A DNA stretch of 64,000 bases from an uncultured Flavobacteriaceae bacterium (GTDB taxonomy: Bacteria; Bacteroidota; Bacteroidia; Flavobacteriales; Flavobacteriaceae), in the NCBI GenBank assembly GCA_963793275.1, contig CAWBZL010000002.1:101590-165589 (forward strand), given 5' to 3'. Positions within the stretch are counted from its first letter, which is position 1. Every line of letters starts with the position of its first letter. Positions 11,750 to 46,737 of the stretch are shown one piece after another. A model generated the notes under the pieces. That model was not told the origin of the DNA and did not search any database. It worked only from the letters and a program-made list of their open reading frames with translations. Position numbers and translations under genes: made by a program.

Positions 11750-12880
11750 ATGGAAACCGATCTTCCGCTTCGGAAAATAATACACGTAGATATGGATGCC
11801 TTTTATGCTTCGGTGGAGCAATTGGACGATCCTTCCCTGGTTGGTAAACCTATTGCCGTAGGTGGTGGTGGCACCCGTGGTGTAGTTAGTGCCGCAAGTT
11901 ACGAAGCTAGGAAGTTTGGCGTGCGATCTGCTATGAGTGGGCGGTTAGCTATAAAATTATGTCCGGAGCTCATCTTTGTGCGCACTAATTTTGAGCGGTA
12001 CCGGGAAATTTCAGAAAAAATAAGAAAGGTATTTTTCGAATTTACAGACCTGGTGGAACCACTTTCGCTGGATGAAGCCTATCTGGATGTAACTGAAAAC
12101 AAGAAAGGAAACCCAAGTGCTTCCTTAATTGCCTTGGAAATACGCCAAAAAATAAAAGAACGCACGGGTTTAAATGCTTCCGCAGGAATTAGCATTAATA
12201 AATTTATTGCGAAAGTAGCCAGTGACATTAACAAACCGAACGGTCAAAAAACAGTTCCGCCGGAAGAGGTGCTGGCATTTCTTGAACAACTGGATATTAA
12301 AAAGTTTTACGGTGTGGGCAAAGTGATGAAAGAAAAAATGTACCGTCACGGAATTTATACGGGAGCCGATTTAAAGAAAAAAAGCTTTGACTATTTAGAA
12401 GAAAACTTTGGAAAAAGCGGGAGTTACTACTATAATATTGTGCGTGGCATACATAACAGCCAGGTAAAAGCAGAACGTACCCGCAAATCACTCGCGGCGG
12501 AAAGGACCTTTAGTGAAAATATTTCTTCTGAAATTTTTATGCTGGAACGCCTGGAAAATATCGCCGAGGAAGTAGCCAAACGACTCAAAAAAAGCAAGGT
12601 CGCCGGCCGAACCATTACGCTAAAAATTAAATATAGCGACTTCACCCTGCAAACCCGCAGTAAAACACTCCCTTTTTATATCGCCACCAAAGAGTTAATA
12701 CTGGATAACGTTAAAGATTTGTTATACCAAGACGAAATGAGGGAGTCTGTACGTTTATTAGGTATAAGCCTGAGTAATCTGAATAACGAAAGCTCTAAAA
12801 AAAAGAGAACATTTCAGAAGAAACCATTGACGTACAACTTAAACTCGACTTCTAATTTATGTAACAAATTACTTTTTTGA
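11750..12880 (+). CDS. dinB: DNA polymerase IV, with the C-terminal tail out of its expected frame after an A8 run
   Basis: Y-family motifs (IHVDMDAFYASVE, SLDEAYLDVT). The last 25 aa look non-native. The alternative frame after 12797-12804 ends in VQLKLDF* at 12855. Confidence 0.9.
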   Translation: METDLPLRKIIHVDMDAFYASVEQLDDPSLVGKPIAVGGGGTRGVVSAASYEARKFGVRSAMSGRLAIKLCPELIFVRTNFERYREISEKIRKVFFEFTDLVEPLSLDEAYLDVTENKKGNPSASLIALEIRQKIKERTGLNASAGISINKFIAKVASDINKPNGQKTVPPEEVLAFLEQLDIKKFYGVGKVMKEKMYRHGIYTGADLKKKSFDYLEENFGKSGSYYYNIVRGIHNSQVKAERTRKSLAAERTFSENISSEIFMLERLENIAEEVAKRLKKSKVAGRTITLKIKYSDFTLQTRSKTLPFYIATKELILDNVKDLLYQDEMRESVRLLGISLSNLNNESSKKKRTFQKKPLTYNLNSTSNLCNKLLF

Positions 12881-12909
12881 ATCTAATAATTAATTAAAAC
12901 CACTTTATT

Positions 12910-13680
12910 ATGAAAAAAGTAGCATTTACCGTCGTAGCCCTAACTTTTGCAACCCTTTTTATGGCTTGTAAAAACGAAACTTCTGAAACTGAAACTACAC
13001 CAACAAACCTCGATCTGGCTGTAGCAGACACCAACCCCAATATTGAAACAGGTTATTTATACGTTACCGCACCCAGTGGCTTGACACTTCGTGAATTCAA
13101 TAACCTAAATAGTGAAAAACTAGCCGTAATGCCTTACGGAACCAAGCTTAAAATCCTTGCAAACGAGCAAAATAACACCATGACCGTTGGAGGAATTAAT
13201 GGCGGTATGAACGAGGTGGAGTACAATAATAAAACAGGATTTGCTTTTAATGGGTTCCTTTCAAAATTCTTCCCGCCGGAAAAAGGGACTAACGCCAAAA
13301 TGTATGTAGAAGATCTAAAAGCTACCTTCCCAACAGCGTCCTACGCCGAAACTACAGGAGGTACAGCAAGTAGCCCTACAAGTACTGAGACGGTTGTGTT
13401 GCCTACCAAGGAGTGGCACGAAGCGTTCTATATTGCTCAAAAACTATACGGTATTCCAATGGCTTTTAATTTTCCAAACCCTAAAGGAAAGGATGCCGAA
13501 ACCATCATAAACAGTAAAAAACCAGAGCAGTTAGTGGCCAGTGACCTGTTGCTGGAAAGAAAAGATAATCAATTTCAGAAAATCACGTACAGCCAGGCTG
13601 CCGAAGGTTTTGGAAGTGGTGTTACCATTACCAAAGAAGGTGAAATGATGAAGATTGAATATACTACCGTTGTGGACTAA
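12910..13680 (+). CDS. hypothetical lipoprotein, possible SH3b-like domain
   Basis: Lipobox LFMAC. GYLYVTAPSGLTLRE...GTKLKIL resembles bacterial SH3. Confidence 0.55.
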   Translation: MKKVAFTVVALTFATLFMACKNETSETETTPTNLDLAVADTNPNIETGYLYVTAPSGLTLREFNNLNSEKLAVMPYGTKLKILANEQNNTMTVGGINGGMNEVEYNNKTGFAFNGFLSKFFPPEKGTNAKMYVEDLKATFPTASYAETTGGTASSPTSTETVVLPTKEWHEAFYIAQKLYGIPMAFNFPNPKGKDAETIINSKKPEQLVASDLLLERKDNQFQKITYSQAAEGFGSGVTITKEGEMMKIEYTTVVD

Positions 13681-13719
13681 ACCCCATTCGGGATAAATTC
13701 TAAACCTAGTAGGGCTTCA

Positions 13720-13740
13720 AAACCTTGATAGGTTTTTTTT
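13720..13740 (+). terminator. Rho-independent terminator
   Basis: AAACCT-tgat-AGGTTT followed by a T run (13733-13740). Confidence 0.55.
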
Positions 13741-13794
13741 ATATCTTTAGATATTGAAGCTCCTCAATCTTTCAATTTCTAAAAATAGGTTATT

Positions 13795-14982
13795 ATGAAA
13801 ATTTTTTTACCAGTACTCGGGTTGTTTATTTATAGTAGTGTTATTTCTCAAATCACTTTAATTCCTGATGAGAATTTTGAGGGCTTCTTACTTTCAGAAG
13901 GAATTGATACAGACGGCGCCTTAAACGGACAAGTAAGCACCGTGGATATTGAAACTGTGATCGAGTTATACGCATCGAATGAAAATATTGAAGATTTTAC
14001 CGGTATTGAAGATTTTGCTGCCTTGGAAATATTAGATTGTTCTGAAAATTCTGGTTTGGAAAGTATCAATTTGAGTACTAACACCATGCTTAAAGAATTT
14101 TATGCGGAGTTTACGTCGCTTTCAACCCTGGATATTTCAACAAATAGTAGTTTACAGATTTTATATATTCCTCATAATAATTTAACCACATTAACACTGG
14201 AGAATAATCCGGCACTAGAAGCACTTGTTTGCGGTAATCCAATGCAGGATGTTGGTCCGTTTAACGAAATTACCAGCATAGATTTAGCTGGCGCTCCCAA
14301 TCTTTTATTTCTGGATGTTTCCTACATGTTTATTAATGTTGATTTTGATTTAACCTTGCTACCTCTCTTAGAAAATTTTTATGGTGCTTACTCCGGACTT
14401 GAAAGTTTAGATTTTTCAAACAACCAAAATCTCGAAGTACTCGATTTGGGGGGTTTTGAGACAGGTTTAGTCTTTGGTCAAAGCAATAATCTTACCGAGC
14501 TGAACCTTTCCAATAATCCCAACCTTACAGATGTGAATGTAGGGTTTACGGGGATAAGTTCACTAAATTTAAGAAATGGTAACAACACTATATTAACTGA
14601 AATGCGCGCAAACCTGAACGACCCGCTATTTTGCATTCAAGTAGATGACGAAACTGCTGCAAATAATGGAGATGTACCTTATGGAGATTGGAATGTAGAT
14701 GCACAGGCAACCTATTCTGAAGAGTGTATTTTGGGAATAGAAGAAAATAAATTAGCATTATTTACCCTATATCCTAACCCAACATCTCAACACTTGAGAA
14801 TAGAATCCTCCAGCAACATGATGCTACAAGGAATTCAAATCTATTCGGTTGAAGGACAATTATTATTGGAGCCAAATTTTAATAACGGTAGTATGGATGT
14901 TTCTGAATTAGCTTCCGGCTTTTATATACTGAAAGCTCAATTTGACGAAAGTGTTTCAAGCCAGACCTTTATAAAGAAATAA
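13795..14982 (+). CDS. leucine-rich-repeat protein with T9SS C-terminal sorting domain
   Basis: Repeated LxxLxLxxN units. C-terminal LYPNPTSQHLRIE...GFYILKAQ resembles the Por secretion tail. Confidence 0.75.
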   Translation: MKIFLPVLGLFIYSSVISQITLIPDENFEGFLLSEGIDTDGALNGQVSTVDIETVIELYASNENIEDFTGIEDFAALEILDCSENSGLESINLSTNTMLKEFYAEFTSLSTLDISTNSSLQILYIPHNNLTTLTLENNPALEALVCGNPMQDVGPFNEITSIDLAGAPNLLFLDVSYMFINVDFDLTLLPLLENFYGAYSGLESLDFSNNQNLEVLDLGGFETGLVFGQSNNLTELNLSNNPNLTDVNVGFTGISSLNLRNGNNTILTEMRANLNDPLFCIQVDDETAANNGDVPYGDWNVDAQATYSEECILGIEENKLALFTLYPNPTSQHLRIESSSNMMLQGIQIYSVEGQLLLEPNFNNGSMDVSELASGFYILKAQFDESVSSQTFIKK

Positions 14983-16413
14983 CTACTTCACTAAACTCAC
15001 CCGCAAGGTATTCACCATCCCTTTATCTGCAATAGGCATGGCGGCCAGGTTAATTAGATAATCTCCTTTTTCTACAAAGCCTCGTTCGTGGGCGATACGG
15101 TTTACATCGTCTACAGTTTCGTCTGTACTTACAAACTTGTCGTAATAAAAAGATTTTACACCCCATAACAGGTTAAGACGCGATAAAATTCTGCGGTTGC
15201 TGGTGTACACCAAAATATGCGCATCTGGTCTCCAGGCCGAAATTTGAAACGCCGTATACCCGCTATTTGTTAACGTGCAAATAGCTTTGGCTGAAATTTC
15301 ATTCGCCATACTCGCTGCATGATAACAAACCGATTTGGTAATATATCTATTTGTACGAATATGTGGTGGCTCCTGCGGCACGTTAATGAGGGTGGAGTTT
15401 TCTACGCTCTTACAAATTTTGGTCATGGTTTTAATAACATCAACAGGATATTGTCCAACCGAAGTTTCCCCGGAAAGCATCACCGCATCTGCGCCGTCCA
15501 TTACACTATTGGCAACATCGTTTACCTCGGCTCTGGTTGGTGTAAGTGAAGTAATCATAGTTTCCATCATTTGCGTGGCTATAATTACGGGTATTCTTGC
15601 TCTTTTAGCCGTTAGTACCAGTTCTTTTTGAATTAATGGTACTTCCTCTGCGGGAACTTCAACACCCAGATCGCCACGGGCAACCATTAAACCATCACAA
15701 TACGCCACAATTTTATCTATATTTTTAACCGCTTCAGGTTTTTCAATCTTGGCTATGATAGGGATTTTATATTCGCTGTGTGCTTCTATAATGGCCTGCA
15801 ACTCTTTTAAATCTTCTGCGTGGCGTACAAAAGAAAGCGCTATCCAGTCTACTTTCTGGCTAATGGCGAATATGGCGTCTTCAATATCTTTTTTGGTAAG
15901 CGCCGGCAACGAAATGTTGGTATTTGGCAGATTCACACCTTTGCGGGAGCGTAATGGACCACCCTGGATCACTTTTGCTTTTACTTCATTTTCATTATTA
16001 GTTTCAAGCACTTCAAACATTAATTTACCGTCGTCCAGTAAAATACGCTCGCCTACTTTTACATCTTTCGGGAAATTATCATAATTCATATACACCTTTT
16101 TGCGGGTGCCTTCAAATTCTTTTCCTGTACAAAACTTAATAGTATCTCCGGGTTGCACAACTACTTCTTCCTTCATCATTCCAACACGTAACTTTGGACC
16201 TTGTAAATCTCCTAAAATGGCGGTGGTGGTATTCATTTCTTCACCAAGATCCCTAATCATTTGTATTCTTTCTTTTACATCGTCATAATTGGCGTGCGAA
16301 AAATTAACTCTAAACACATCCACGCCCTCTTCTATCATGGCGCGTAAGGTTTCTTTGCTTGAAGTTGCTGGGCCTAGTGTGGCTACTATTTTTGTTCTTT
16401 TCTGTTTCGGCAT
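14983..16413 (-). CDS. pyk: pyruvate kinase
   Basis: Full-length match to PK family motifs (KIVATLGPA, MVARGDLGVE). Confidence 0.95.
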   Translation of the reverse strand: MPKQKRTKIVATLGPATSSKETLRAMIEEGVDVFRVNFSHANYDDVKERIQMIRDLGEEMNTTTAILGDLQGPKLRVGMMKEEVVVQPGDTIKFCTGKEFEGTRKKVYMNYDNFPKDVKVGERILLDDGKLMFEVLETNNENEVKAKVIQGGPLRSRKGVNLPNTNISLPALTKKDIEDAIFAISQKVDWIALSFVRHAEDLKELQAIIEAHSEYKIPIIAKIEKPEAVKNIDKIVAYCDGLMVARGDLGVEVPAEEVPLIQKELVLTAKRARIPVIIATQMMETMITSLTPTRAEVNDVANSVMDGADAVMLSGETSVGQYPVDVIKTMTKICKSVENSTLINVPQEPPHIRTNRYITKSVCYHAASMANEISAKAICTLTNSGYTAFQISAWRPDAHILVYTSNRRILSRLNLLWGVKSFYYDKFVSTDETVDDVNRIAHERGFVEKGDYLINLAAMPIADKGMVNTLRVSLVK

Positions 16414-19974: not shown

Positions 19975-20031
19975 AACATTTTTTAAAAGCATAAATAGAA
20001 GGTGAACGTTGGAGAACAGCAAACATACATT

Positions 20032-21377
20032 ATGGATAAATTTTTATTCAAGTATATAGACAACACAGGACTTGTACTATGGCGTGTGGTTTTTGGTGCC
20101 TTAATAGCAACCGAAGCTTTTGGGGCTATTGCAACAGGATGGCTTAAAAGAACCCTTATTGAGCCCGAGTTTACCTTTAACTTTATTGGTTTTGAGTTCC
20201 TGCAACCACTGCCCGGCGACTTAATGTATTACTACTTTATACTTATGGGTGTTTTTGGTCTTTTGGTGATGGTAGGGTACAAATACCGCTTTAGCATGGC
20301 ATGTTACGCGCTTATGTGGACGTGTGTGTATTTAATGCAAAAAACGTCTTATAATAATCATTATTATTTAATGATGTTGCTGTGTTGGATCATGGTGTTT
20401 CTACCTGCCCACCGCTGGTTTTCCCTGGATGCAACATTAGACCCCGAAGTTAAATCGCCGGCTGCTCCGCGTTGGACTTACTTAGTAATTATCTTTCAGG
20501 TATGGATTGTGTATACATTTGCATCTGTTGCAAAATGGTATCCGGATTGGCTAGATGGTACTACCACAGCACTTTTTATGAGTGGAAAAAGCGATTACTG
20601 GCTCATTGGACCGTTTTTACAGCTGGACTGGGTGCATTGGTGTATTGCGTATGTGGGTATTTTCTTCGATCTGCTCATTGTTCCGTTGATGCTTTATAAG
20701 CGTACCAGATTTATCGGTTTTGCTATTTCAGTGTTCTTTCATTTATTTAATTCTATTGTGTTTCAGATTGGGATCTTTCCTTATATGAGTATTGCTTTTG
20801 CACTGTTCTTTTTCTCTTCTGAAACATTACAAAAAAGGTTTCTTCCGAAGAAAAAATTATACACCTTAGGCGAAGTGAAAGTGCCAAACTACAAACCACT
20901 GCTGGTTGGAGTGTTTTCGATCTATTTTATATTTCAAATTGGCTTACCACTTCGCCATTGGGCGTTTCAGGATGACGTGCTTTGGACCGAGAGGGCCACC
21001 GCCTAAGCTGGCGTATGATGCTACGCAGCAAAGGCTCCAGAGTTATAGTGTATACTCAGGAAGAAGGCAGCGTAGAAAAAAAACCGTATAACTACCGAAA
21101 ACTCCTGAGTAAAAAACAACAACGCGCTTCCAAAAGCAAACCAGACCTATTGTGGAGACTCGCTAAAGAGATTAAAAAAGCCGAAGCTAAAGAAGGTAGA
21201 AACGTACAGGTTTTTATGGATGTTAAGTTAAAAATAAATGGCGGGGAGTACCATCAGTTTATAAAACCAGATGTAGATATTGCCTCTAAGGAGTGGCACC
21301 CCTTTAAACATCACGATTGGCTGGAACCTTCGCCTGCAGATTATCACGCAAAAGCAAAGAAAAAAGAAGAAAACTAA
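20032..21377 (+). pseudogene. HTTM-domain (vitamin K-dependent gamma-carboxylase-like) membrane protein, split by a 1-nt frameshift near 20989-20993
   Basis: ORFs 20002-21006 and 20982-21377 overlap in different frames. Joined, they read ...DDVLWTE|EGHRLSWRMMLRSK..., the conserved HTTM core, for a total of about 450 aa. Confidence 0.8.
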
Positions 21378-25663: not shown

Positions 25664-25996
25664 ATGAACGCACTTAGAAACAAAGTACAGTTGATTGGAA
25701 GATTGGGGCAAGACCCGGAAATTGTAACCTTTAAAGACGGCAACAAAATGGCCAAATTCTCTATGGCCACGGACGACAGCTACAAAGACAAAGAAGGACA
25801 GAAAGTAGAACGTGCTTACTGGCACAATGTAATTGTAAAAGGAGGCCTTGTAAATGTGGTGGAAAACTATGTAACCAAAGGACAGGAAATCGCCATAGAA
25901 GGGAAACTCACCAACCGCTCCTGGGACGACAAAGAAGGCAACAAACATTATGTTACCGAGGTGTTATGTAATGAGTTATTGATGTTAAGTAAGTAG
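25664..25996 (+). CDS. ssb: single-stranded DNA-binding protein (short form, no acidic tail)
   Basis: OB-fold SSB pattern (NKVQLIGRLGQDPE...WHNVIVKG...IEGKL). Confidence 0.9.
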   Translation: MNALRNKVQLIGRLGQDPEIVTFKDGNKMAKFSMATDDSYKDKEGQKVERAYWHNVIVKGGLVNVVENYVTKGQEIAIEGKLTNRSWDDKEGNKHYVTEVLCNELLMLSK

Positions 25997-26042: not shown

Positions 26043-26070
26043 AAAAGGGGGCACTATGGTCCCCTTTTTT
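26043..26070 (+). terminator. Rho-independent terminator after ssb
   Basis: AAAAGGGG (26043-26050) pairs with CCCCTTTT (26061-26068), followed by more T. Confidence 0.6.
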
Positions 26071-26082
26071 AAATTTTTTAAT

Positions 26083-26392
26083 TTGGCAGGAGCGTACGTA
26101 TATATGCTATTATGTGCCAACAATAGTTATTATATTGGCAGTACACGATCTCTATTGAAGAGATTTCAAGAACACCGGATGGGACAAGGGGCAAATCATA
26201 CCTTTTAAATATTTACCCGTGGCGTTTGTTTATTTTGAGGAGCATAATTCTAAAGACCATGCGTATCTTCGCGAAATGCAGTTGAAAGGATGGACAAGAA
26301 AGAAGAAACAAACATTAAATATGAATTGGAAATTTGAGTTGCACAGGTTATCTGCATGTAAAAACCCAACACATTATTTAAATAGGAATTAA
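26083..26392 (+). pseudogene. GIY-YIG (URI) nuclease-family gene interrupted by a frameshift
   Basis: TTG-AGAYVYMLLCANNSYYIGSTRSLLKRFQEHRMGQGANHTF* stops at 26206-26208. The next frame continues KYLPVAFVYFEEHNSKDHAYLREMQLKGWTRKKK... to 26392. The shift lies in a T4 run. Confidence 0.7.
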
Positions 26393-26432: not shown

Positions 26433-28508
26433 ATGCAAAAAAACCCAAACATCAAAAACCTCCTCAAAACCCATTTCGGTTTCGACACCTTTCGTCCTAA
26501 CCAGCAGGAAATTATTGAAAATGTGCTGGCGGGTAAAAACACGCTGGCCATTATGCCTACAGGAGGGGGAAAGTCATTGTGTTTTCAGTTACCTGCTTTG
26601 ACATTGGAAGGAACAGCGATTGTTATTTCACCGTTAATTGCCTTAATGAAGGATCAGGTAGATGCCCTAAATGCCAACGGAATTTCGGCTTCATATTATA
26701 ATAGTAGCCAGGTGCCAGAGGTGCAGGAGGAAGTATTGACGAACTTAATGACGGGTCAATTAAAATTACTCTATGTGGCTCCGGAAAGCCTGTGGAACCT
26801 CACCAATTATTTTTCTAAGACTGAAATTTCCTTAATCGCAGTAGACGAGGCCCACTGTATTTCATCGTGGGGTCATGATTTCAGACCTGCCTACACGCAA
26901 TTAAGCAGGCTCCAAGACGAATTTCCAAAAACACCAGTGATCGCTTTAACCGCAACGGCAGACCGAGCAACACAGGACGATATTGTAAAACAACTAGGTA
27001 TTGGCAGTGCCAGAAGATTTGTATCTTCTTTCGACAGGCCTAACCTATACCTGGATGTGCGCCCTGGACAACAACGGATGCAGCAGGTATTAAAATTTCT
27101 GAAAAACAAAGAAACTCAAAGCGGTATTATTTACTGTTTAAGCCGAAAAAGTACTGAAGCCATCGCATCAAAACTCGTTGCAAAAGGCTACAAAGCCCAA
27201 GCGTATCACGCCGGAATTGAAGCTGAAGAACGCAGCAGGATCCAGGACGACTTTATAAATGACAGAGCTCCTATAATCGTGGCTACCATCGCTTTTGGGA
27301 TGGGAATAGACAAAAGCAATGTCCGTTGGGTGATACATTATAACATGCCAAAGAATATTGAAGGCTATTATCAGGAAATTGGCCGAAGCGGTCGTGACGG
27401 ACTACCCGCGCACGGATTAATGTTTTACAGCTTTGCCGACGTAATTATGCTTCGGAAATTTGCTCAGGGAACCCAGACCGAAGAATTTCAGCTGGCAAAA
27501 CTGGAACGTATGCAACAATTTGCCGAAGCCTTAAGTTGTCGTCGAAAAGCGTTGCTCAATTATTTTGGTGAACATATGACGCAGGATTGTGGTAATTGCG
27601 ACATTTGCAAAACTCCACCTCAATATATAGACGGTACCATAATCGCTCAAAAGGTATGCTCTGGAGTCGCCAGATTGAAAGAGCAGGAAGCAATGGGAAT
27701 GTTAATAGATGTGTTGAGAGGCTCTCACAACGCGCAGGTTGTTGAGAAAGGCTATCAAAATTTAAAGACCTTTGGAGCTGCTAAAGACATTCCGTGGAAA
27801 GATCTACAGCAGTATGTCATTCAGCTATTGAATCAAGGTGTGTTGGAAATTTGGTTCCACGAAAACGGCCGATTGGTGCTTACCCCAACTGCCAAAAAGA
27901 TTTTATTTGAAGGTAAAAAAGTGCGTCTGGCAGACTTGATGCAACCAGAGGCTGTTACCATTCCAAAAGAGCGGACCACAAAAAAACGCAAAGATTTATT
28001 CGAAAAATTACGTACGCTCCGTACCAAATTGGCTACCGAAGCCGGAGTGCCCGCGTATGTTATTTTTAGCGATGCCAGTTTGGAAGATATGGAAAATAAG
28101 CTCCCAAAAACGGTGGCCGATTTTGCTGAAATTAGTGGTGTGGGTCGCGCTAAACTGGAAAAATATGCCGATGTATTTTTACAAGTAGTCGCCAAGCATC
28201 AGGATGCTCAGGAAAATAAAGTAGCCACACACGAGCGCAGTCTGCAATTATTTGAAAAGGGATTGACGGTGCCAGAAATTTCAAAAAAGAGGGGTATTTC
28301 TGTTAATACTGTATACGGTCATTTTCTGAAGATGCACGAATTGGGTCACAAAATAGACTTGTCTCAATTTATCTCTACAGAAGAAATTTCAGCAGTGCAA
28401 AAGGCGAAATTAAAGCTGGAAAATCCCGATGGGTTAAAACTCTATTTCGATTATTTTGAAGAAAAAATGCCGTATTGGAAAATAAAGTTTGGGTTGTCCT
28501 TAGCGTAA
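26433..28508 (+). CDS. recQ: ATP-dependent DNA helicase RecQ
   Basis: PTGGGKS, DEAH (VDEAHCIS), a zinc-binding Cys cluster, and an HRDC plus extra C-terminal HTH-like region. Confidence 0.95.
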   Translation: MQKNPNIKNLLKTHFGFDTFRPNQQEIIENVLAGKNTLAIMPTGGGKSLCFQLPALTLEGTAIVISPLIALMKDQVDALNANGISASYYNSSQVPEVQEEVLTNLMTGQLKLLYVAPESLWNLTNYFSKTEISLIAVDEAHCISSWGHDFRPAYTQLSRLQDEFPKTPVIALTATADRATQDDIVKQLGIGSARRFVSSFDRPNLYLDVRPGQQRMQQVLKFLKNKETQSGIIYCLSRKSTEAIASKLVAKGYKAQAYHAGIEAEERSRIQDDFINDRAPIIVATIAFGMGIDKSNVRWVIHYNMPKNIEGYYQEIGRSGRDGLPAHGLMFYSFADVIMLRKFAQGTQTEEFQLAKLERMQQFAEALSCRRKALLNYFGEHMTQDCGNCDICKTPPQYIDGTIIAQKVCSGVARLKEQEAMGMLIDVLRGSHNAQVVEKGYQNLKTFGAAKDIPWKDLQQYVIQLLNQGVLEIWFHENGRLVLTPTAKKILFEGKKVRLADLMQPEAVTIPKERTTKKRKDLFEKLRTLRTKLATEAGVPAYVIFSDASLEDMENKLPKTVADFAEISGVGRAKLEKYADVFLQVVAKHQDAQENKVATHERSLQLFEKGLTVPEISKKRGISVNTVYGHFLKMHELGHKIDLSQFISTEEISAVQKAKLKLENPDGLKLYFDYFEEKMPYWKIKFGLSLA

Positions 28509-29876: not shown

Positions 29877-29960
29877 GGGAGTGCGTCAACGCTGGAGAGT
29901 TGAGATAGTCTGTAAAACTATTCCTTAGTAGCTGAATAGGTTCAAATCCTTTCACTCCCA
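29877..29960 (+). tRNA. tRNA-Tyr (GTA), class II, 84 nt
   Basis: Acceptor GGGAGTG/CACTCCC, anticodon arm ATAGT-CTGTAAA-ACTAT, variable stem TTAG/CTGA, T loop TTCAAAT. Atypical C8 and one U-U mismatch in the T stem. No encoded CCA. Confidence 0.75.
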
Positions 29961-29963
29961 CAG

Positions 29964-30036
29964 AGTACCGTAGTTCAAAGGCTGGAGCGTCCGGTTGTCT
30001 CCCGGAAAGGTACGGGTTCGAGTCCCGTCGGTACTG
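29964..30036 (+). tRNA. tRNA-Asp (GTC)
   Basis: Acceptor AGTACCG/CGGTACT, D arm GTTC/GAGC, anticodon arm TCCGG-TTGTCTC-CCGGA, T arm ACGGG-TTCGAGT-CCCGT, discriminator G. Atypical A1-U72 and U37. Confidence 0.85.
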
Positions 30037-30115
30037 CGAATGATATTGAAGGAGTTTGCATCGGGACGAGAAGTTTATCCTGAGTAGTGGTGAGGCACGA
30101 GCCGCGAATCGAAGG

Positions 30116-30130
30116 GAGTCCCGTCGGTAC
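30116..30130 (+). repeat. 15-nt direct copy of the tRNA-Asp 3' end (GAGTCCCGTCGGTAC)
   Basis: Identical to 30020-30034, the T-loop/T-stem/acceptor 3' strand of tRNA-Asp, and lies 96 nt downstream of it. Confidence 0.85.
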
Positions 30131-30168
30131 GGTCATGCCTCCGACGAGAGAGGCACGAACCAGAGGAA

Positions 30169-30240
30169 GGCACTTTAGCATAGTGGTTGGTGCACCTCAC
30201 TTTCTATGAGGAGACCAGGGTTTGATTCCCTGATGGAGTA
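30169..30240 (+). pseudogene. tRNA-Glu(TTC)-like unit with non-pairing acceptor strands
   Basis: The D arm GCAT/GTGC and anticodon arm CCTCA-CTTTCTA-TGAGG are good, and the T stem CAGGG/CCCTG pairs. But the T loop is TTTGATT (no C56), position 37 is U, and 5' GGCACTT versus 3' ATGGAGT pair at only 3 of 7 positions. Confidence 0.5.
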
Positions 30241-30244
30241 CAAT

Positions 30245-30340
30245 GGGCTTATGGTGTAGCGGATAGCATGCTTGGCTTCGAACCAAGTGGTATGTTGCCT
30301 GTGCCGCACTTGATGCGGTATTCAAATCCTGTTAAGCCCA
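30245..30340 (+). ncRNA. 96-nt tRNA-Arg(TCG)-like element with an inserted hairpin and no canonical T stem
   Basis: Perfect acceptor GGGCTTA/TAAGCCC, D arm GTGT/GCAT, anticodon arm CTTGG-CTTCGAA-CCAAG. This is followed by 33 nt containing hairpin CCGCA-cttga-TGCGG (30304-30318). A TTCAAAT loop is present but its flanks (CGGTA / CCTGT) do not pair. Confidence 0.5.
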
Positions 30341-30345
30341 CAAAT

Positions 30346-30418
30346 TGAGGTATAACTCAGCGGCTAGAGTACCGTGCTTTTAACACGGGAGTCCTAGGTT
30401 CAAATCCTAGTGCCTCAA
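30346..30418 (+). tRNA. tRNA-Lys (TTT)
   Basis: Acceptor TGAGGTA/TGCCTCA (one G-U), D arm ACTC/GAGT, anticodon arm CCGTG-CTTTTAA-CACGG, T arm CTAGG-TTCAAAT-CCTAG. U1-A72. Confidence 0.85.
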
Positions 30419-30422
30419 CAAT

Positions 30423-30493
30423 AAACCCATAGTGTAGTGGTAGCACACAAGATTTTGATTCTTGGGGTCTGAGTTCGAATCTCGGTGGGTTTA
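30423..30493 (+). tRNA. tRNA-Gln (TTG)
   Basis: Acceptor AAACCCA/TGGGTTT, D arm GTGT/GCAC, anticodon arm CAAGA-TTTTGAT-TCTTG, T arm CTGAG-TTCGAAT-CTCGG. Confidence 0.85.
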
Positions 30494-30501
30494 CACTATA
30501 T

Positions 30502-30574
30502 GGAACAGTAGCAAAGCGGGTCAATGCACTGGATTGAAGCTCCAGGAATACGGGTTCGAGTCCTGTCTGTTCCA
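30502..30574 (+). tRNA. tRNA-Phe (GAA)
   Basis: Acceptor GGAACAG/CTGTTCC, anticodon arm CTGGA-TTGAAGC-TCCAG, T arm ACGGG-TTCGAGT-CCTGT. Confidence 0.85.
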
Positions 30575-30730
30575 CGAAAGGTCTGTAACGCAGATGATAG
30601 TATCAAGCGGGTCTTGTTGTGTGTTTCGGTATAGCACCATTGCATACGGCGTTGCAACTAGTATTGCGAACGTATGTGCAACTTGACTTGAAGGTTTTGC
30701 TGTTTTCCAAAAAATAGCGGCAATCGTTTC

Positions 30731-30754
30731 GTGGGTTCGAATCCCACTCCCGCC
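30731..30754 (+). other. orphan tRNA T arm plus 3' acceptor-type strand with no matching 5' strand upstream
   Basis: GTGGG-TTCGAAT-CCCAC followed by TCCCGCC. No GGCGGGA-like partner exists in the preceding 156 nt. Confidence 0.6.
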
Positions 30755-30757
30755 CAA

Positions 30758-30842
30758 GCAGGGATAGCGTAGTGGTTAACGCACCAGATAAAGGATCTGG
30801 CAAACGAGAGCAGATGTCGCGGGTTCGACTCCCGCTCCCAAT
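30758..30842 (+). ncRNA. 85-nt tRNA-like element with a non-canonical anticodon loop (TAAAGGA) and an 18-nt variable region
   Basis: D arm GCGT-AGTGGTTA-ACGC and T arm GCGGG-TTCGACT-CCCGC are perfect. Anticodon stem CCAGA/TCTGG pairs, but loop position 33 is A (or a 6-bp stem with a 5-nt loop forms). Own acceptor strands GCAGGGA / TCCCAAT pair at only 4-5 positions. Confidence 0.45.
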
Positions 30843-30846
30843 GTAA

Positions 30847-30916
30847 ATTGGGGTAGCTCAGTTGGTAGAGCACTGCACTTTTAATGCAGGTAATGGACTC
30901 AAAATCCATCATCGTA
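30847..30916 (+). pseudogene. tRNA-Lys(TTT)-like unit lacking a matching 3' acceptor strand
   Basis: ATTGGGG-TA-GCTC-AGTTGGTA-GAGC and the anticodon arm CTGCA-CTTTTAA-TGCAG are canonical. The T arm ATGGA-CTCAAAA-TCCAT lacks TTC. The 3' strand CATCGTA does not pair with the 5' strand. Confidence 0.5.
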
Positions 30917-38066: not shown

Positions 38067-38705
38067 TTAAGACGAAATAAATAGTACTTCTCCATCTACC
38101 AACACATAAATTTCATCTTTTTCAGAAGGCGTTAGTATATATTTTCCGGTAAAACTCCCAAAGGCGGGGAAAATTAGTTGTTTTTCAGTTTTATAGAAAC
38201 AGGCAACTCTTACTGTTTGCCTGCCAACACCTTGTAACTTTACACCCGGATGAATATGGCCACAAAAATTGAAATACGCATCCAATTCTGTTGGGTGATG
38301 TGTTAACAGAAATTTTTCGAGTATAAGTTCTTTATAGATTTGAACTCCTAACGCTTCAAATAAGTATTGCGGAATGATATCGTGATTCCCTGAAATTAAA
38401 ATAACCTGCGCTGAGGTATAGTCTACCCACTTTGCAAAATCGCTCCACTCACTATTTAAGTTACTGTGAAAAAGATCGCCTAAAAAACAAACCGTCTGTG
38501 GCTGAAAGTGATTTACAACACCCGTTAATTTTTCTAAATTTTCATAAGCAACGTGTGCAGGAATTGCGGCTCCGTGTTTTCTGAAATGCGTCACTTTTCC
38601 TAAGTGTACATCGGCGATGAGTAGCATTGATTTTTGTTCCCAAAATATTGCTCCGCTGGGGTGGAGGATGAAGTTTTGATCGTTTATGGAAATGGTTTGG
38701 GACAT
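38067..38705 (-). CDS. pdeM: ligase-associated DNA damage response endonuclease/phosphoesterase PdeM
   Basis: Metallophosphoesterase motifs ADVHLGK, GDLFH, GNHD, plus cluster context. Confidence 0.85.
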
Positions 38706-38808
38706 CAGACTGCAAAAATACAGCTTTAGTCATTTCGACGCAGGAGAAACCACATAACAATGACTACTATATTATTTTAATAAGGATTATAACAGTTGAA
38801 ATTATTCA

Positions 38809-41268
38809 TTATTTCATCAATTTTAACGTCATTCGTTTAATTCTATCCTTCAATTTTTCTGAAGAAAGCTTTTCCCGTAACCTGTCGGTAATAATGGGGA
38901 AACTAAAAGGCGTGGCTTCTTCGCATTGTTTCCAAACTATTTCTTGGCTGGCAATTCGCTCCAATGCCAATCGTAGTCTGCCTTCTTCCATTTCGTGTTC
39001 AAAAGTTTCTCTAAATGCCTGTTGGTATAACAAATTATCTGCTTCGTAATCTCTAAACACATCAAACAGCAATTGCGAATTGCTTTGCAGGTGCTTGGTT
39101 TTTATTTGTTTGCTAGGATAGCCCGTAAAAACCAAACCACTTATTACAGCAATATCTCTGAATTTTCTGCGGGCCAATTCAGTACTATTTAAACTTTTTT
39201 GAAGGTCGCTAAAAAGATAGTCAGTGCTAAATAAATTATTGTCCACCACATTCTGAATATCCAAAGGCTGATCGCTCAACAATTCAAAGCCATAATCATT
39301 GTATGCAAGGGAAAAAGTGATGGGAGAAAGCAAACTAATTCTGTACGCCAATAATCCGCCCATTGCCATATGTACAAACCGCCCTTCAAATGGATAAAAT
39401 AAATGGTGATAGCCTTCTCTGGTTTTAAAGGTTTCTATTAAAAACTCATTATTTCCAGGAACAATACTTTCTTTTTCCTGTCTGTCAAAAATATCTGAAA
39501 GAGCTTTTAACTCAGGCGTGTTTCTCTTATGATCTGCTTCAGACTGCAGTTCGTTTCGTAAAATTTCAGACATCTGAGAAGAAAGTGCCATGCGCCCTCC
39601 CATAAAACTTACTACATTTCTTGTGCGCTTGCTACTGCGTCTTACCTGAGCGGCCATATTTCGAACCCTAACCAGTTCCAACGTTCTTCCCGCAAATACA
39701 AATACATCTCCGGGTTTCATTTTTCCTATAAAAAATTCTTCGATGGTACCTATAAATCCGCCACTCACGTATTTTACCTGCACCATTGCATCACTTACTA
39801 TAGTGCCAATAGACAGACGGTGCATCATAGCTGTTTGGCGGCTGTCCACGTAAAACCTCCCATCGTCGTCTACTAAAACGCGTTTATATTCGTCATAAGC
39901 CTGCAAGCTCTGGCTTCCTAGTGTGATAAAATTGAGGCACCATTGCCATTGTTCTTCAGTAATTCCCTGAAAACAAAAGGTGTTTTTAATTTCCGGATAT
40001 ATGTCTTTGGGATAAAAACCATCACTTACAGCAAGGGTTACTAAATACTGAATTAACACATCAAAACTTAACAAATACGGGATGCGGTCTTCCATTACTT
40101 CCCCTTTTACAGCTTTTTTTAGTGCCGAAGCTTCTATCAACTCCATAGCGTGTGTTGGCAAAAAATGAATTACTGATGGTTCTCCGGGTCTGTGATTGCT
40201 ACGCCCTGCCCGTTGTAAAAACTTAGCAATTCCTTTAGGCCCACCAATTTGAATAATAGTTTCTACAGGCGCAAAGTCTACTCCCAGATCCAAACTTGAG
40301 GTAGCCACCACAGCTTTTAAACTTTCGTTTCGTATCGCTTGTTCTACCCACAATCTGGTTTCCTTATTGATGCTTCCGTGATGCATCGCTAATTCGCCAG
40401 CAAACTCCGGATACTTCTCTAAGATTTTCTGAAACCAAATTTCGCATTGACCGCGGGTATTGGTAAAGATGAGTGTAGTTTTACTGGATTTTATAATAGG
40501 TATAATGTCGTCCAGCAAGTGCAATCCCAAATGCCCGCGCCAGGGAAAGGTTTCCATTTTTTTAGGAATAATAGATTTTACAACTATTTTTTTCTTGATG
40601 TTTGCTTTTAATAAAATCGAATTTTCGCGTAACGCTTCATTCATTCCCAGTAACACATCCTGCGCTTGTTCTAAATTTCCAATAGTTGCCGAAATTCCCC
40701 AAATACGAAGCTGAGGCGAGATGGTTTTAAGTCTGGATAAGCCAAGTTCCATCTGCACACCACGTTTGCTGCCAAGGAGCTCGTGCCATTCATCTACCAC
40801 TACAGCTGTAAGGTTTCCGAAGATCTTTTTATAGCCTTTACTTGCCAACAACAACATTAAACTTTCTGGAGTTGTAATGAGTAAATCGGGCATGTTCCGT
40901 TTTTGCTTTGCCCGCTCACTTTGCGCAGTATCACCGGTTCTTATTCCCACAGTTAAGCCTGTTTCCAGTTCGTCTGCAAAACGTTGTGCCGCTTGTTTAA
41001 TTTCTACCGAAAGTGCCCGCAGCGGAGTAATCCAGATTGCTTTTAAACCTTTTGTGTGTTTAGTTTTATATTCCGGATGGTCTTTTATATACTGCAATAC
41101 AATAGGAACCCAAAGTGCATAGGTTTTCCCGCTTCCCGTAGGAGCATTTAGAAGCCCGTGTTTTCCTTGTAAAAATGCCTTCCAGGTTTTTTTCTGAAAT
41201 GGGAATGCCTTCCAGTTTTTAGACTCGAACCAGGTTTCGGCTATTTCTATTAATTGGGATTGATTCAT
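38809..41268 (-). CDS. lhr: ligase-associated DNA damage response DEXH-box helicase (Lhr-core type)
   Basis: PTGSGKT, DEWH, helicase C and an Lhr-type C-terminal domain. 1 nt from the ligase gene. Confidence 0.9.
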   Translation of the reverse strand: MNQSQLIEIAETWFESKNWKAFPFQKKTWKAFLQGKHGLLNAPTGSGKTYALWVPIVLQYIKDHPEYKTKHTKGLKAIWITPLRALSVEIKQAAQRFADELETGLTVGIRTGDTAQSERAKQKRNMPDLLITTPESLMLLLASKGYKKIFGNLTAVVVDEWHELLGSKRGVQMELGLSRLKTISPQLRIWGISATIGNLEQAQDVLLGMNEALRENSILLKANIKKKIVVKSIIPKKMETFPWRGHLGLHLLDDIIPIIKSSKTTLIFTNTRGQCEIWFQKILEKYPEFAGELAMHHGSINKETRLWVEQAIRNESLKAVVATSSLDLGVDFAPVETIIQIGGPKGIAKFLQRAGRSNHRPGEPSVIHFLPTHAMELIEASALKKAVKGEVMEDRIPYLLSFDVLIQYLVTLAVSDGFYPKDIYPEIKNTFCFQGITEEQWQWCLNFITLGSQSLQAYDEYKRVLVDDDGRFYVDSRQTAMMHRLSIGTIVSDAMVQVKYVSGGFIGTIEEFFIGKMKPGDVFVFAGRTLELVRVRNMAAQVRRSSKRTRNVVSFMGGRMALSSQMSEILRNELQSEADHKRNTPELKALSDIFDRQEKESIVPGNNEFLIETFKTREGYHHLFYPFEGRFVHMAMGGLLAYRISLLSPITFSLAYNDYGFELLSDQPLDIQNVVDNNLFSTDYLFSDLQKSLNSTELARRKFRDIAVISGLVFTGYPSKQIKTKHLQSNSQLLFDVFRDYEADNLLYQQAFRETFEHEMEEGRLRLALERIASQEIVWKQCEEATPFSFPIITDRLREKLSSEKLKDRIKRMTLKLMK

Positions 41269-41269
41269 G

Positions 41270-42919
41270 TTACTTAGGAATCAAAGCTCTCAGATCGTCC
41301 AGGGTATTTGCTTCTTCTATAGGTTTGTCTTTTCTCCATCGCAATATTCTTGGAAACCTGGTGGCAATACCGCTTTTATGTCGTTTACTTTCAGCAATGC
41401 CCTCAAAAGCTATTTCAAAAACGTGATGTGGTGTAACGCTTCTTACACGACCAAAGCGTTCCAGGGTGTTCTTTTTTATCCAGGCATCTACTTGTCTGAA
41501 TTCGGCATCTGTGAGACCCGAATATGCTTTTGCAAAAGTTACCAGTTCTCCTTCATCCCAAAGACCAAAGGTATAATCTGTATATAAATTTGCGCGCCTT
41601 CCGTGACCACGCATGGCGTAGGTGAGCACACCGTCTATGGTGAATGGGTCGGTTTTCCATTTCCACCAATCGCCTTTTTTTCGGCCAACTAAATAAGGAG
41701 AATCTTTGCGTTTCAGCATTAAACCTTCACTGCGTTTTTCTCGCGATAATTTTCTTTCGGCTGCGGCATCTTCCCAGGTTTTAAACGTCATTGTTTCGCT
41801 TAGATACAAGCCTATTTCGTCACAACTACATTCTGAAATTAAAGTGTCCAGAATTTCTCTTCTTTCTGAAAAGGGCTTTTGCCGGATATCTTTTCCTTTC
41901 CACTCCAATAGATCGTAAGCATTCAAAATCACCGGTGTTTTCTCCAGTAATTTTTTTGAAATATTCTTTCTGCCAATACGAGTTTGAAGGTCGTTAAAAT
42001 TTCCAATTTCATTATTTCCGAAGGGTAAAATTTCACCATCCAAAACGGTACCGTTAGGAATTTTTGAAAGGAAGCGTTGAAATTCAGGGTATTTATCGGT
42101 AACTAGTTCTTCGCCTCTGGACCAGACAAACACTTCGTCATTTCTGATAATTACCTGGCTCCTGATACCATCCCATTTATGTTCAAAACTCCAGCCTTTA
42201 ATATCGCCCAGATCTTCCTGAAAATTATCTTCTACAGCATACGCCAGATAAAACGGATAGGGTTTACTGAGGTAATCTTCCGGGTTTTCTTCTAAAATTA
42301 AATCCTGAAACGTGGTTGTATCTGCAGTCCAGTTACCCATTAGTTTATAGGCAAGTATGTCTTCATCTATTCCCGTAGATTTTGAGAGTGATCGGGTCAT
42401 TAATTTTTGACTCACCCCAATTCTAAAACCACCCGTAATAATTTTATTGAACACAAAACGCTCAAAATAGCTCATTCTCAACCAGTTTTCCTGAAGATAG
42501 CTTCTTTTTTCATCTTCTTCGAGTGTACGTAGCGTAATGATTTCGTTACAGTATTGAGACAGCGATTTTTCCCGAATTCCCAGCGCCTCTCCCGCTGAGA
42601 GGGGAATATTCTTTTCTTCCTTTTTTAGGGAGTGTTTAGGTGCGCTTGGAATTATTAAGGCAATAGTTTCGGCCAGATCACCCACTATATGATAGCTTTC
42701 TTCAAATAACCACTGTGGGATGCCACTAATTTCGGTTGCCCATAACCTTAGAAGTGTTGTGTTTACAGGGCGTTTTGGTCTTCTGTGTGAGAGTATGGCA
42801 ATGGTCCATAGTTTATCATCTTCACCCGCATTGTTAAAATATTCGGTGAGTGCAGCCACTTTCAAGGTGGTTTTATTGGTACTATCCAGAGTTTTTATGA
42901 GGGCAGCAAAATGTTTCAT
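41270..42919 (-). CDS. ATP-dependent DNA ligase
   Basis: Adenylation motif I (EHKWDGIR) and an OB domain. 4-nt overlap with the exonuclease gene. Confidence 0.9.
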   Translation of the reverse strand: MKHFAALIKTLDSTNKTTLKVAALTEYFNNAGEDDKLWTIAILSHRRPKRPVNTTLLRLWATEISGIPQWLFEESYHIVGDLAETIALIIPSAPKHSLKKEEKNIPLSAGEALGIREKSLSQYCNEIITLRTLEEDEKRSYLQENWLRMSYFERFVFNKIITGGFRIGVSQKLMTRSLSKSTGIDEDILAYKLMGNWTADTTTFQDLILEENPEDYLSKPYPFYLAYAVEDNFQEDLGDIKGWSFEHKWDGIRSQVIIRNDEVFVWSRGEELVTDKYPEFQRFLSKIPNGTVLDGEILPFGNNEIGNFNDLQTRIGRKNISKKLLEKTPVILNAYDLLEWKGKDIRQKPFSERREILDTLISECSCDEIGLYLSETMTFKTWEDAAAERKLSREKRSEGLMLKRKDSPYLVGRKKGDWWKWKTDPFTIDGVLTYAMRGHGRRANLYTDYTFGLWDEGELVTFAKAYSGLTDAEFRQVDAWIKKNTLERFGRVRSVTPHHVFEIAFEGIAESKRHKSGIATRFPRILRWRKDKPIEEANTLDDLRALIPK

Positions 42920-44016
42920 ACCGTATCGTCCTCCTCTTTTTTATTCACTTCGCTTCCTTCTTCTTCATATTGTGTTTTTTCGGTGCGTGCATCCAGGCCC
43001 ATTTCTTCACGCAGATATCTAGAGAAAATCTCGGTATAGCCGTGGGTGGCGATAACTTTTTCAGCACCTGTGTCTTTTACAGTTTGTAGCAATCCGTCCC
43101 AATCTGCGTGATCGCTTAGTACAAATCCGCGGTCTATGGCACGGCGCCTTCTTGCCCCTCTGAACGTCATCCATCCGCTCGCGCTGGCGGTTACATACGG
43201 TACCATCTTTCTGATCCAGGTTCCTCCGTGTGCACTGGGCGGGGCAAGTACTATATTGCCTAACAATTCTTCTTTTTTGGTCTCACGGGTAATGCGTGTA
43301 GTTTCGTGAAAGTTATAATTTTCTCTAAGCACTGCTGTCATATTTTCTATGGCACCGTGGGTGTAAATTTTGCCAATATCCGGATCCAGATGTTTCAGCA
43401 AACGTTGTGCTTTTCCCAGACTGTAGCCAAAAAGGATAGACGTTTTATTTTCTGCTCTGTTGGTGGCCCACCAGTTATTTATGTCTTTAAAAACTTCGGC
43501 CTGTGGGGTCCATTTAAATGCCGGGAGACCAAAGGTACATTCGGTAATAAAGGTGTTGCATTTTACCAGTTCAAAAGGTTCGGCAATGCCGTCATTTTCG
43601 GTTTTAAAATCGCCTGTAAAGACCCAGACTTCTCCTTTATACATTGCTCTTACCTGGCTACTTGCAACAATATGCCCAGCGGGATGAAGACTAAAGGTGA
43701 CTCCGTTTATGGTAAAAGTTTCTCCCCATTTCTTACCGCTTACGGTTATTTCTCCCAGGCGGTGCTTAATAATGGGTACATTTTTATGATGGGTAATGTA
43801 TTGTTTGTGTCCCCACCGACTGTGGTCTGCGTGGCCGTGGGTGATGATGCACTTATCTACAGGACGCCAGGCGTCTATATAAACATCTGCCTGCTTGCAG
43901 TAGATGCCTTTGTCGTTAAATTGAAGGAGTGGTGTTTTAGGCAATTTTTCAGAATTTTCTCGATAATTGAAGTTTGCATGGTCCGAGGTTTGCCTCGAAT
44001 TTAAATTTTTCGCCAT
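42916..44016 (-). CDS. ligase-associated DNA damage response exonuclease (MBL/beta-CASP fold)
   Basis: HGHADH metallo-beta-lactamase motif. First gene of the cluster. Confidence 0.85.
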   Translation of the reverse strand: MAKNLNSRQTSDHANFNYRENSEKLPKTPLLQFNDKGIYCKQADVYIDAWRPVDKCIITHGHADHSRWGHKQYITHHKNVPIIKHRLGEITVSGKKWGETFTINGVTFSLHPAGHIVASSQVRAMYKGEVWVFTGDFKTENDGIAEPFELVKCNTFITECTFGLPAFKWTPQAEVFKDINNWWATNRAENKTSILFGYSLGKAQRLLKHLDPDIGKIYTHGAIENMTAVLRENYNFHETTRITRETKKEELLGNIVLAPPSAHGGTWIRKMVPYVTASASGWMTFRGARRRRAIDRGFVLSDHADWDGLLQTVKDTGAEKVIATHGYTEIFSRYLREEMGLDARTEKTQYEEEGSEVNKKEEDDTV

Positions 44017-44653: not shown

Positions 44654-46153
44654 TTAAAAGAGCTTTTCGATACTGTCGAAGAGCTCTTTTTGCGTATAGG
44701 GTTTTGGTAAAAAAGCCGAAGCTCCCGAAGCCATCATTTGCTCTTGTTTCTGCAACATAGTGCTTCCACTGGCAACTAAAATAGGAATGTGTTGTATGTT
44801 GGAATCCTGCTTGCACTTTCTTATAAAGGCTATACCAGAGCTGTCTGCCAATGCTCCCTTACTAACAATAAGGTTGTAATTTCTTTTTCTCAACAATTCA
44901 AACGCCTGGTTTGCATCCTGCGCTATTTCTAAAATAATTCCTTTCTCATTGTTAAGGAAGGTTCGCATGAAGAGCATTTGGTTGGTTTCAATTTCTTCAA
45001 TAACCAGAATACGCTTGCTCATTAAAATTCCAGAACCTTTTGGCACTGTAGACCTTTTTTCTTTCCTTTTTCTCTCTTTAAAGGGTAGTAAGCAGGAAAA
45101 AGTAGTGCCGTCTTTATTGCTTGTAACCGAAATTTTCCCATCCAATACTGTCACTAGGTCTTTTACAATTTTAAGGCCTAAACCTTCACCAATGGGCTTA
45201 ATTGCATCCTCCTTTAACTGATAATAAGAATCGAAAACACGGTCAATTTCCGAAGTTGGGATTCCCTTTCCGGAGTCTGAAACTGAAATAGCAAGCATAC
45301 AATTTTCAGCACTGTTTTCTTTCAAAGTAACTCCTAATAGTATGGAGCCATGTGTTGTGTTTCTGAAGGCGTTTTCTAATAAATTAAATAGTATTTGATT
45401 TAACCGAAAAGGATCACCAATTAATTTTTTTGGAACTGTTTTTTCAATACTTGCTTCCAGCAAAATATTTTTTTTGCTGAACTTTAATTTATAATGTTGT
45501 TCCAGATTAGTTATAATGTGACCTAAATTAAAGGGAACCTGTTGCTTGGTAATAATTCCCCGCTCAATTTTTGAGATATCCAGCATATCGTCCATGAGTT
45601 GCTTTATTTGCAACCCGGTACGCTCCATTACCTTAAGTGTTTCGTTTTGATCGTAGGAAAGTTTTGTTTTTCTTAGCAACTCCATAAAACCCAGTAGGTT
45701 GTTTAACGGATTTCGGATTTCGTGATTAATATTCGCCAAAAAATTATTTTTGAAATTCTCTTTCGCCAGCAATAACTTCTTGTCAAAAGTTAATCTGTTT
45801 TTTGCAATAGCGGCTTCGTTTTTCTGCTGTACCAGTGGGTGTGCATCCCTGTAATGCGTTGTAAAGTCGAATAACAGCAAATAAATAGTATCCTCTCGTC
45901 GTACAATACTTATGTCTAAAATCTTACTAAAACCATCGCCGGAAAGATTTACACAGGGATAGGTAACATCTTGTGAAACTTCGGGAATTATGTTGATAAT
46001 GGTTTCAAAAAAAGGATGAAAACTAGTGATGTTTTCATTTTCAGTAAAAGGAAACAATACATCATCACTTTCAATCACGGCACCTTCTTTGGTTATTTCA
46101 ATTTGCTGAATCCTTGTGTTGAGAAACTCTTCTTTTAAGAGGGCAGTATTCAT
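44654..46153 (-). CDS. hybrid histidine kinase: novel N-terminal domain + HisKA + HATPase_c + degenerate receiver
   Basis: H box NINHEIRNPL, N box LLENAFRNT, G boxes SDSGKGI and GEGLGL. The receiver-like tail has K where the phospho-Asp is expected (LIVSK). Confidence 0.85.
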   Translation of the reverse strand: MNTALLKEEFLNTRIQQIEITKEGAVIESDDVLFPFTENENITSFHPFFETIINIIPEVSQDVTYPCVNLSGDGFSKILDISIVRREDTIYLLLFDFTTHYRDAHPLVQQKNEAAIAKNRLTFDKKLLLAKENFKNNFLANINHEIRNPLNNLLGFMELLRKTKLSYDQNETLKVMERTGLQIKQLMDDMLDISKIERGIITKQQVPFNLGHIITNLEQHYKLKFSKKNILLEASIEKTVPKKLIGDPFRLNQILFNLLENAFRNTTHGSILLGVTLKENSAENCMLAISVSDSGKGIPTSEIDRVFDSYYQLKEDAIKPIGEGLGLKIVKDLVTVLDGKISVTSNKDGTTFSCLLPFKERKRKEKRSTVPKGSGILMSKRILVIEEIETNQMLFMRTFLNNEKGIILEIAQDANQAFELLRKRNYNLIVSKGALADSSGIAFIRKCKQDSNIQHIPILVASGSTMLQKQEQMMASGASAFLPKPYTQKELFDSIEKLF

Positions 46154-46155
46154 AA

Positions 46156-46641: not shown

Positions 46642-46737
46642 GGTTGGGTTTTTTATGCACGCAAATATATCCGAAAACAAAAGATGCTGCTATTTAATTG
46701 AAAGAACTTAAGGTGCAGTTTGTCGAAAACTCACTCG

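Follow-up and report, generated by a model that had tools for sequence, protein, structure and literature searches.

A record-specific one-base frameshift appears to separate a flavobacterial DNA polymerase IV from its putative clamp-binding tail

The dinB gene of an uncultured member of the Flavobacteriaceae, encoding a Y-family DNA polymerase IV (Pol IV), raises the question of why a peptide resembling the beta-clamp-binding motif of such polymerases is found at its very end in a reading frame other than that of the polymerase itself. The open reading frame (ORF) occupies positions 11750-12880 on the plus strand of the window (the whole stretch of 64,000 nucleotides analysed here; all features of the dinB locus lie on this strand) and is called as a protein of 376 aa, with a TGA stop codon at 12878-12880 and a C-terminus reading ...ESSKKKRTFQKKPLTYNLNSTSNLCNKLLF. 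The zero frame carries the polymerase core, namely, the palm/fingers, thumb and little finger, together with the start of a Lys-rich linker (11750-12804, assigned by Pfam and PDB matches). A run of 8 A residues (A8; 12797-12804), with G as the next base at 12805, encodes Lys-Lys-Lys(AAG) of the linker and overlaps an A_AAA_AAG heptamer (12799-12805, read from the sequence), the phase of which is that of the −1 slippery site of Escherichia coli dnaX. Across the run, the zero frame reads ...SSKKK-RTFQKKPLTYNLNSTSNLCNKLLF up to the called stop; this tail, RTFQKKPLTYNLNSTSNLCNKLLF (12806-12880), has no homologue and runs into a conserved intergenic block. The −1 frame reads KKENISEETIDVQLKLDF up to a TAA codon at 12853-12855, or KK-ENISEETIDVQLKLDF when followed across the run, and the corresponding tail, ENISEETIDVQLKLDF plus TAA (12805-12855), is in frame in relatives and includes the clamp-binding-type hexapeptide QLKLDF (12835-12852). 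The last 16 codons of dinB are, in other words, out of frame (−1), and the called ORF ends with 24 residues unmatched in any homologue. One base more or two fewer would repair the end of the protein to ...SSKKKENISEETIDVQLKLDF. Since the −1 frame is shut just upstream by a TAA at 12795-12797, the frame change must fall in the A run or at G12805. The original prediction had described the A8 run, the 2 frames and the −1 stop codon, and this description proved accurate to the base.

The core of the polymerase is intact. The 3 expected Pfam domains, IMS (PF00817, at 8.7e-53, covering positions 1-148/148), IMS_HHH (PF11798, HHH) and IMS_C (PF11799, at 8.9e-25), were all recognized, and the protein matched PDB entries 7yll (E = 1.7e-85) and 4ir1, the E. 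coli Pol IV (E = 7.3e-74). In the PDB alignment, the motifs hvDmDaF and slDEayldvt, which hold the catalytic carboxylates (D8, D103, and E104 in E. coli), align identically to those of E. coli Pol IV. With the Pfam and PDB matches on the one hand and the motif in the −1 frame on the other, the proposed combination of an intact core with an out-of-frame clamp tether was confirmed.

Searches with the frame-corrected DinB retrieved homologues that are 78-93% identical, 368 aa long and matched through the last residue of the query (some homologues have 354 aa because a later start was called). The C-terminus Q[LMF]x[LFWIM]xF was present in all of the 120 best homologues, and IDVQLKLDF, the last 9 residues of the −1 tail, is the identical C-terminus of 58 of these 120. 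Thus, the clamp motif is in frame with the DinB core in 120/120 homologues but not in the deposited sequence. At the DNA level, a clamp-type motif is in frame at 88 of 89 related loci, with the hexapeptide being exactly terminal at 80/89 and lying a few residues before the protein end at 8/89 (from Cytophagia and Weeksellaceae). The resemblance to a clamp-binding peptide, pointed out originally for the window's gene, was therefore upheld both in the 120 protein hits and at the 88 in-frame loci. At the one remaining locus, from the metagenome-assembled genome (MAG) L014, the motif was lost to a nonsense codon, not to a frameshift, with an in-frame TAA in the linker preceding ...VLVQLKFDF. This dinB (L014:3960-4140, uncultured Flavobacteriaceae 07C-BC-St03_bin.14) reads …NLNTE up to the TAA within the Lys-rich linker and NGPTKKENVLVQLKFDF between it and the following stop; it may represent an independent loss of the clamp tail or another assembly error. 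The zero-frame tail of the window's dinB, by contrast, has no carrier among about 170 related proteins and 89 related DNA loci, so that the orthologues side with the predicted tail and not with the annotated one, and within the 13 closest protein clusters, which together have about 55 members, no 376-aa form occurs other than that of the window's own record (P0122, NCBI/ENA). Taken together, the comparisons indicate that the −1 tail is the real C-terminus of the family.

The nature of this C-terminus can be approached through E. coli, the polymerases of which need a hexameric clamp-binding motif, QLxLxL, for their biological activity, the Pol IV copy being 346-QLVLGL-351 (PMC4564189). QLKLDF, which the −1 frame places directly before the stop codon, fits the consensus Q-L-x-hydrophobic-x-L/F (PMC4564189) and is a putative beta-clamp (DnaN) binding peptide. 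The flavobacterial protein shares with E. coli Pol IV (DinB) the domain order, the catalytic motifs and a hexapeptide of the form Q-L-x-hydrophobic-x-hydrophobic at the extreme C-terminus, past a flexible linker (PMC4564189). It differs in having the Flavobacteriaceae form QLK[LF][DE]F behind a linker rich in Lys and Glu, in that the motif is out of frame in the window record, and in that binding to the flavobacterial clamp is a prediction from family-wide conservation. Across Flavobacteriaceae DinB, the QLK[LF][DE]F C-terminus is essentially invariant.

Could the annotated 376-aa protein nevertheless be the true product, with its ...NKLLF tail as a new C-terminus replacing the clamp motif? 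The hydrophobic LLF end is what speaks for such a replacement. However, the tail has no homologue, is without the Q-L start of the motif and is translated from an intergenic block (12856-12909; TATGTAAGAAACTACTTTTTTGAATCTAAATATTAATT...ATG) that is conserved at the nucleotide level among relatives, as judged from the DNA alignment, and non-coding in all of them, whereas the −1 frame preserves the ancestral tail in full. We consider this explanation hardly credible. As an alternative clamp motif, ...NKLLF was likewise rejected, given its conserved non-coding origin, the lack of Q-L and its restriction to the window's record. The intergenic block is presumed to be the promoter/leader of the downstream gene for an SH3-domain lipoprotein. 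Within the spacer between the 2 genes, a block of approximately 45 nt (TATGTAAGAAACTACTTTTTTGAATCTAAATATTAATT) is nearly invariant among relatives. In most relatives, a variable G+C-rich hairpin lies between the dinB stop codon and this block; it is absent from the window and from L082.

Which base is missing was addressed by aligning the window's dinB junction with the 9 closest loci (alignment A1). At the junction, L083-L085 read CCT AAA AAA AAG G.., L086 and L087 read GCT AAG AAA AAG GAG GAT, and L088 and L089 read CCT AAA AAA AAC GAG, as compared to TCT AAA AAA AAG -AG AAC in the window. Two losses within 12797-12807 would account for the difference, that of a G (GG to G) and that of an A (A9 to A8), and either repair would give KKKEN. 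The original prediction had placed the lesion in the A run; according to the alignment of the relatives, it need not lie there and may instead be the loss of a G after the run. Codon usage bears on the choice between the 2 bases: 80% of the Lys codons in the window's ORFs are AAA, and among 18 Lys-Lys-Lys triplets none is coded as A9 and 10 are coded as AAG AAA AAA, which makes an ancestral A9 at dinB the less likely state. Clear avoidance of A9 runs was observed in the coding sequence of the window. A run of A8 is itself unremarkable in the window, the ORFs of which contain 10 runs of at least 8. Among relatives, the Lys-rich linker before the motif often has A7-A9 runs, reaching A8 or longer at 13/89 loci, and such runs make the linker a built-in weak spot for real and artefactual frameshifts alike.

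An alternative reading is programmed recoding, in which dinB would be kept out of frame on purpose and clamp-competent Pol IV would arise solely when ribosomes shift to −1 on A_AAA_AAG or when transcription slips on the run; a further variant is a heritable ON/OFF switch in run length that tunes mutagenesis. The heptamer is in the exact phase, a −1 slip on it would read ...KKK-ENIS..., which is the family sequence without any altered residue, and the −1 frame opens solely at the A run. No −1 site in E. coli is more prone to shifting than A_AAA_AAG (PMC5009743). In the window, which sets the scope of the tRNA search, one tRNA-Lys(ttt) gene, for the UUU anticodon, is present at 30346-30419. There is also a precedent for slippage supplying a C-terminal interaction domain, in tssM (PMC4256274). 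Against recoding, the two-frame layout occurs at none of the 89 DNA loci and in none of the 120 proteins, and about half of the closest relatives (L081, L082, L086, and L087) have the A run broken up by synonymous AAG or by different codons. The comparison of A-run lengths in relatives, suggested in the original prediction, thus revealed that none shares the shift and that the run itself is not conserved. Folding of 12770-12900 yielded no sign of a downstream structure (MFE −9.9 kcal/mol, z = +0.76, with 159 of 200 shuffles folding at least as well), and no Shine-Dalgarno-like (GGAGG-like) element was found in the 25 nt upstream of the heptamer. In addition, 2 further frameshifts in the window, described below, are ones that nobody would call programmed.

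Comparison with known systems sharpens these points. The frameshift of E. coli dnaX uses an identical heptamer in the same phase, and there, too, the −1 shift alters the C-terminus of a component of the replication/repair polymerase machinery (PMC5009743); however, dnaX has an upstream Shine-Dalgarno-like stimulator, a downstream stem-loop, conservation and approximately 50% of ribosomes shifting, whereas the dinB site has neither stimulators nor conservation. In Citrobacter rodentium tssM1 (A11) and in the poly(A) tracts of endosymbionts, an A run likewise sits just before a frame change by which a C-terminal interaction module is lost, and one additional A in the mRNA restores it (PMC4256274). 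These tracts have 10-11 A or more, with experimentally shown rescue of about 20-25% (PMC4256274), whereas the dinB run is A8, as opposed to A11 in tssM, close to the minimum length for slippage by bacterial RNA polymerase (PMC6260861); programmed slippage usually involves runs of 9 or more that are conserved at the frame junction. Striking as the coincidence of heptamer and phase is, relatives already have AAA AAA AAG in frame, and the heptamer at dinB is therefore probably incidental. Collectively, we regard programmed recoding or a run-length switch as very unlikely. Among the 3 causes originally offered, a sequence error and a real recent mutation stand, whereas programmed slippage was not supported, given the lack of conservation and of stimulators and the interrupted run. 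The dinB lesion is best read as an ordinary, record-specific, non-programmed one-base deletion.

The deposited sequence would then be short of one base at the A8/G(G)AG boundary (12797-12807) in the Lys-rich linker, and this loss would push the last 16 codons, ending in QLKLDF, into the −1 frame, so that the called ORF would run on for 24 codons without meaning, into the presumed promoter of the next gene. If the base is missing from the record only, the real dinB would encode a normal Pol IV of 368 aa ending in ...KKKENISEETIDVQLKLDF.

Whether the base is missing from the organism or from its record is a separate matter. Among relatives, the tail is in frame in all cases except for the nonsense codon of L014, and a frameshift is found in none. 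In the collections searched, the species is represented by no record other than that of the window, which consists of a single contig of 582,737 bp plus short Logan contigs. One of the latter, L090 (run ERR12040027, 2,984 nt), is 100% identical to window positions 12711-15694, including A8-G-AG. Thus, the dinB lesion is not a quirk of a single assembler and was in the majority in at least 1 read set, unless the error is systematic there. Exact-pattern scans of JGI metagenomes, including one with variable run length, found no conspecific DNA.

The window's ORFs were swept against Pfam for further broken genes. Single-base frameshifts were identified in 3 of about 63 genes across the 64 kb, namely, dinB, an HTTM gene and a GIY-YIG gene, and about 50 other ORFs gave full-length Pfam matches. 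The HTTM/vitamin-K-carboxylase-like gene (20002-21377, plus strand) is split into 20002-21006 and 20982-21377 by the loss of one base at about 20989-20992, within a WTEEGH motif; the fused protein has 448 aa and is 92% identical to full-length homologues. The junction is TGG ACC GAA GAA GGC CAC in relatives and TGGACCG-AGAGGGCCAC in the window, and W[TN]EE[GA]H is invariant in 120/120 HTTM homologues. The protein of the same gene assembled in Logan (P0248, 457 aa) is in frame, with LW-AK-GHRL at the junction, and otherwise identical to that of the window. Two assemblies of one organism therefore differ solely at this site, with both deviating from an invariant motif, which we read as unreliable base calls and not as biology. 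The third gene encodes a small GIY-YIG (YhbQ-like) nuclease (26056-26392, plus strand) and appears to be split by a surplus T in its T4 run (26203-26206); with one T removed, the fused protein of 95 aa fits positions 6-76 of 78 of PF01541. This gene is placed between the SSB gene (25664-25996) and recQ (26433-28508).

Apart from the lesions, frame-corrected DinB and HTTM are pristine: at columns at least 97% conserved among 120 homologues each, neither shows a single deviation, and both score as well as or better than intact relatives. This lack of decay excludes old pseudogenes: a lesion must either have arisen extremely recently or be an artefact, and between these 2 states the conserved-column test does not discriminate. 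By our own rough estimate, as opposed to a calculation, 3 such lesions per 64 kb are far above expectation for a free-living bacterium. Because 2 more conserved genes, otherwise pristine, have single-base frameshifts and HTTM differs in a second assembly, we somewhat favour an uncorrected consensus or base-calling error in the MAG over a change in the DNA of the organism. The pattern resembles indel errors in draft and MAG genomes in its isolated one-base indels in otherwise perfect genes, several of them per 64 kb and one at an irreproducible site; it differs from such errors in that the dinB site is repeated in a second assembly and most long homopolymers are correct. Indeed, among 63 A/T runs of 7 or more in the window, 52 lie inside ORFs and 51 of these 52 are in frame, dinB being the sole exception, which counts against error insofar as it reveals no general problem with homopolymer length. 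A systematic error tied to a motif was considered as well, as the dinB and HTTM lesions can both be written as AGGAG to AGAG, and was rejected, with 81 AGGAG, 39 AAGGAG and 11 GAGGAG sites being intact in the window.

Runs of A or T are true mutational hotspots for indels. A genuine and very recent deletion in this lineage, leaving Pol IV with its catalytic core but no clamp tether, is a serious, if less probable, explanation. It agrees with the reproduction of the dinB junction by an independent k-mer assembly and with the other long homopolymers inside ORFs being in frame, short runs being natural indel hotspots; moreover, the separate loss of the motif in L014 by a nonsense codon suggests that motif-less alleles may occur in nature. 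It accords less well with 3 pristine conserved genes being freshly frameshifted in 64 kb, which is unexpectedly many, with the HTTM site not being reproducible between assemblies and with the JGI metagenomes containing no conspecific sequence that would show the allele to be segregating. The loss of the tether would matter, the motif being required in E. coli (PMC4564189). If genuine, the allele would by this analogy be null, or at best strongly hypomorphic, in translesion synthesis and in mutagenesis that depends on Pol IV, and an unprogrammed −1 slip on A_AAA_AAG or A insertion by RNA polymerase in A8 might still yield full-length protein at a level of a few per cent. Single-base insertions during transcription rise exponentially with the length of A/T runs (PMC5574713), but rescue at A8 would be small, since E. 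coli RNA polymerase slips appreciably only with at least 7 T, and with even more A (PMC6260861). We consider it highly improbable that a real deletion has been tolerated or selected because such slippage limits clamp-competent Pol IV to a few per cent and acts as a natural throttle, or because a reversible A8/A9 (or G/GG) change acts as a switch, on the access of an error-prone polymerase to the replication fork.

The favoured reading, a sequence error, and a genuine deletion differ in their consequences. In the case of an error, dinB of the window record is to be read as encoding an ordinary Pol IV of 368 aa, HTTM and GIY-YIG are likewise probably intact genes, and the assembly is to be treated as having roughly one indel per 20 kb. 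In the case of a genuine deletion, the locus would hold a natural Pol IV allele without clamp tether, a loss which in E. coli abolishes biological activity (PMC4564189), and would be a small strain-level curiosity concerning mutagenesis capacity.

Several other regions of the window were recorded in passing. The minus strand at 38067-44016 carries a DNA-repair-like run comprising a 366-aa ORF without Pfam match and genes for an ATP-dependent DNA ligase (549 aa), an Lhr-type helicase (819 aa) and a metallophosphoesterase. A tRNA array at 29877-30910 includes Tyr, Asp, Glu, Lys-UUU, Gln, Phe, and Leu; 2 extra tRNA-like Rfam matches in it were not called by ARAGORN (30245-30340 and 30853-30910), and a sub-threshold YrlA/Y-RNA-like match was located at 30811-30878. 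Finally, at 44654-48637 on the minus strand, 2 genes for small GTPases of the Ras/Roc family (46156-46680 and 47337-47828) alternate with ORFs of unassigned function, and this region adjoins a hybrid histidine kinase/response regulator gene.
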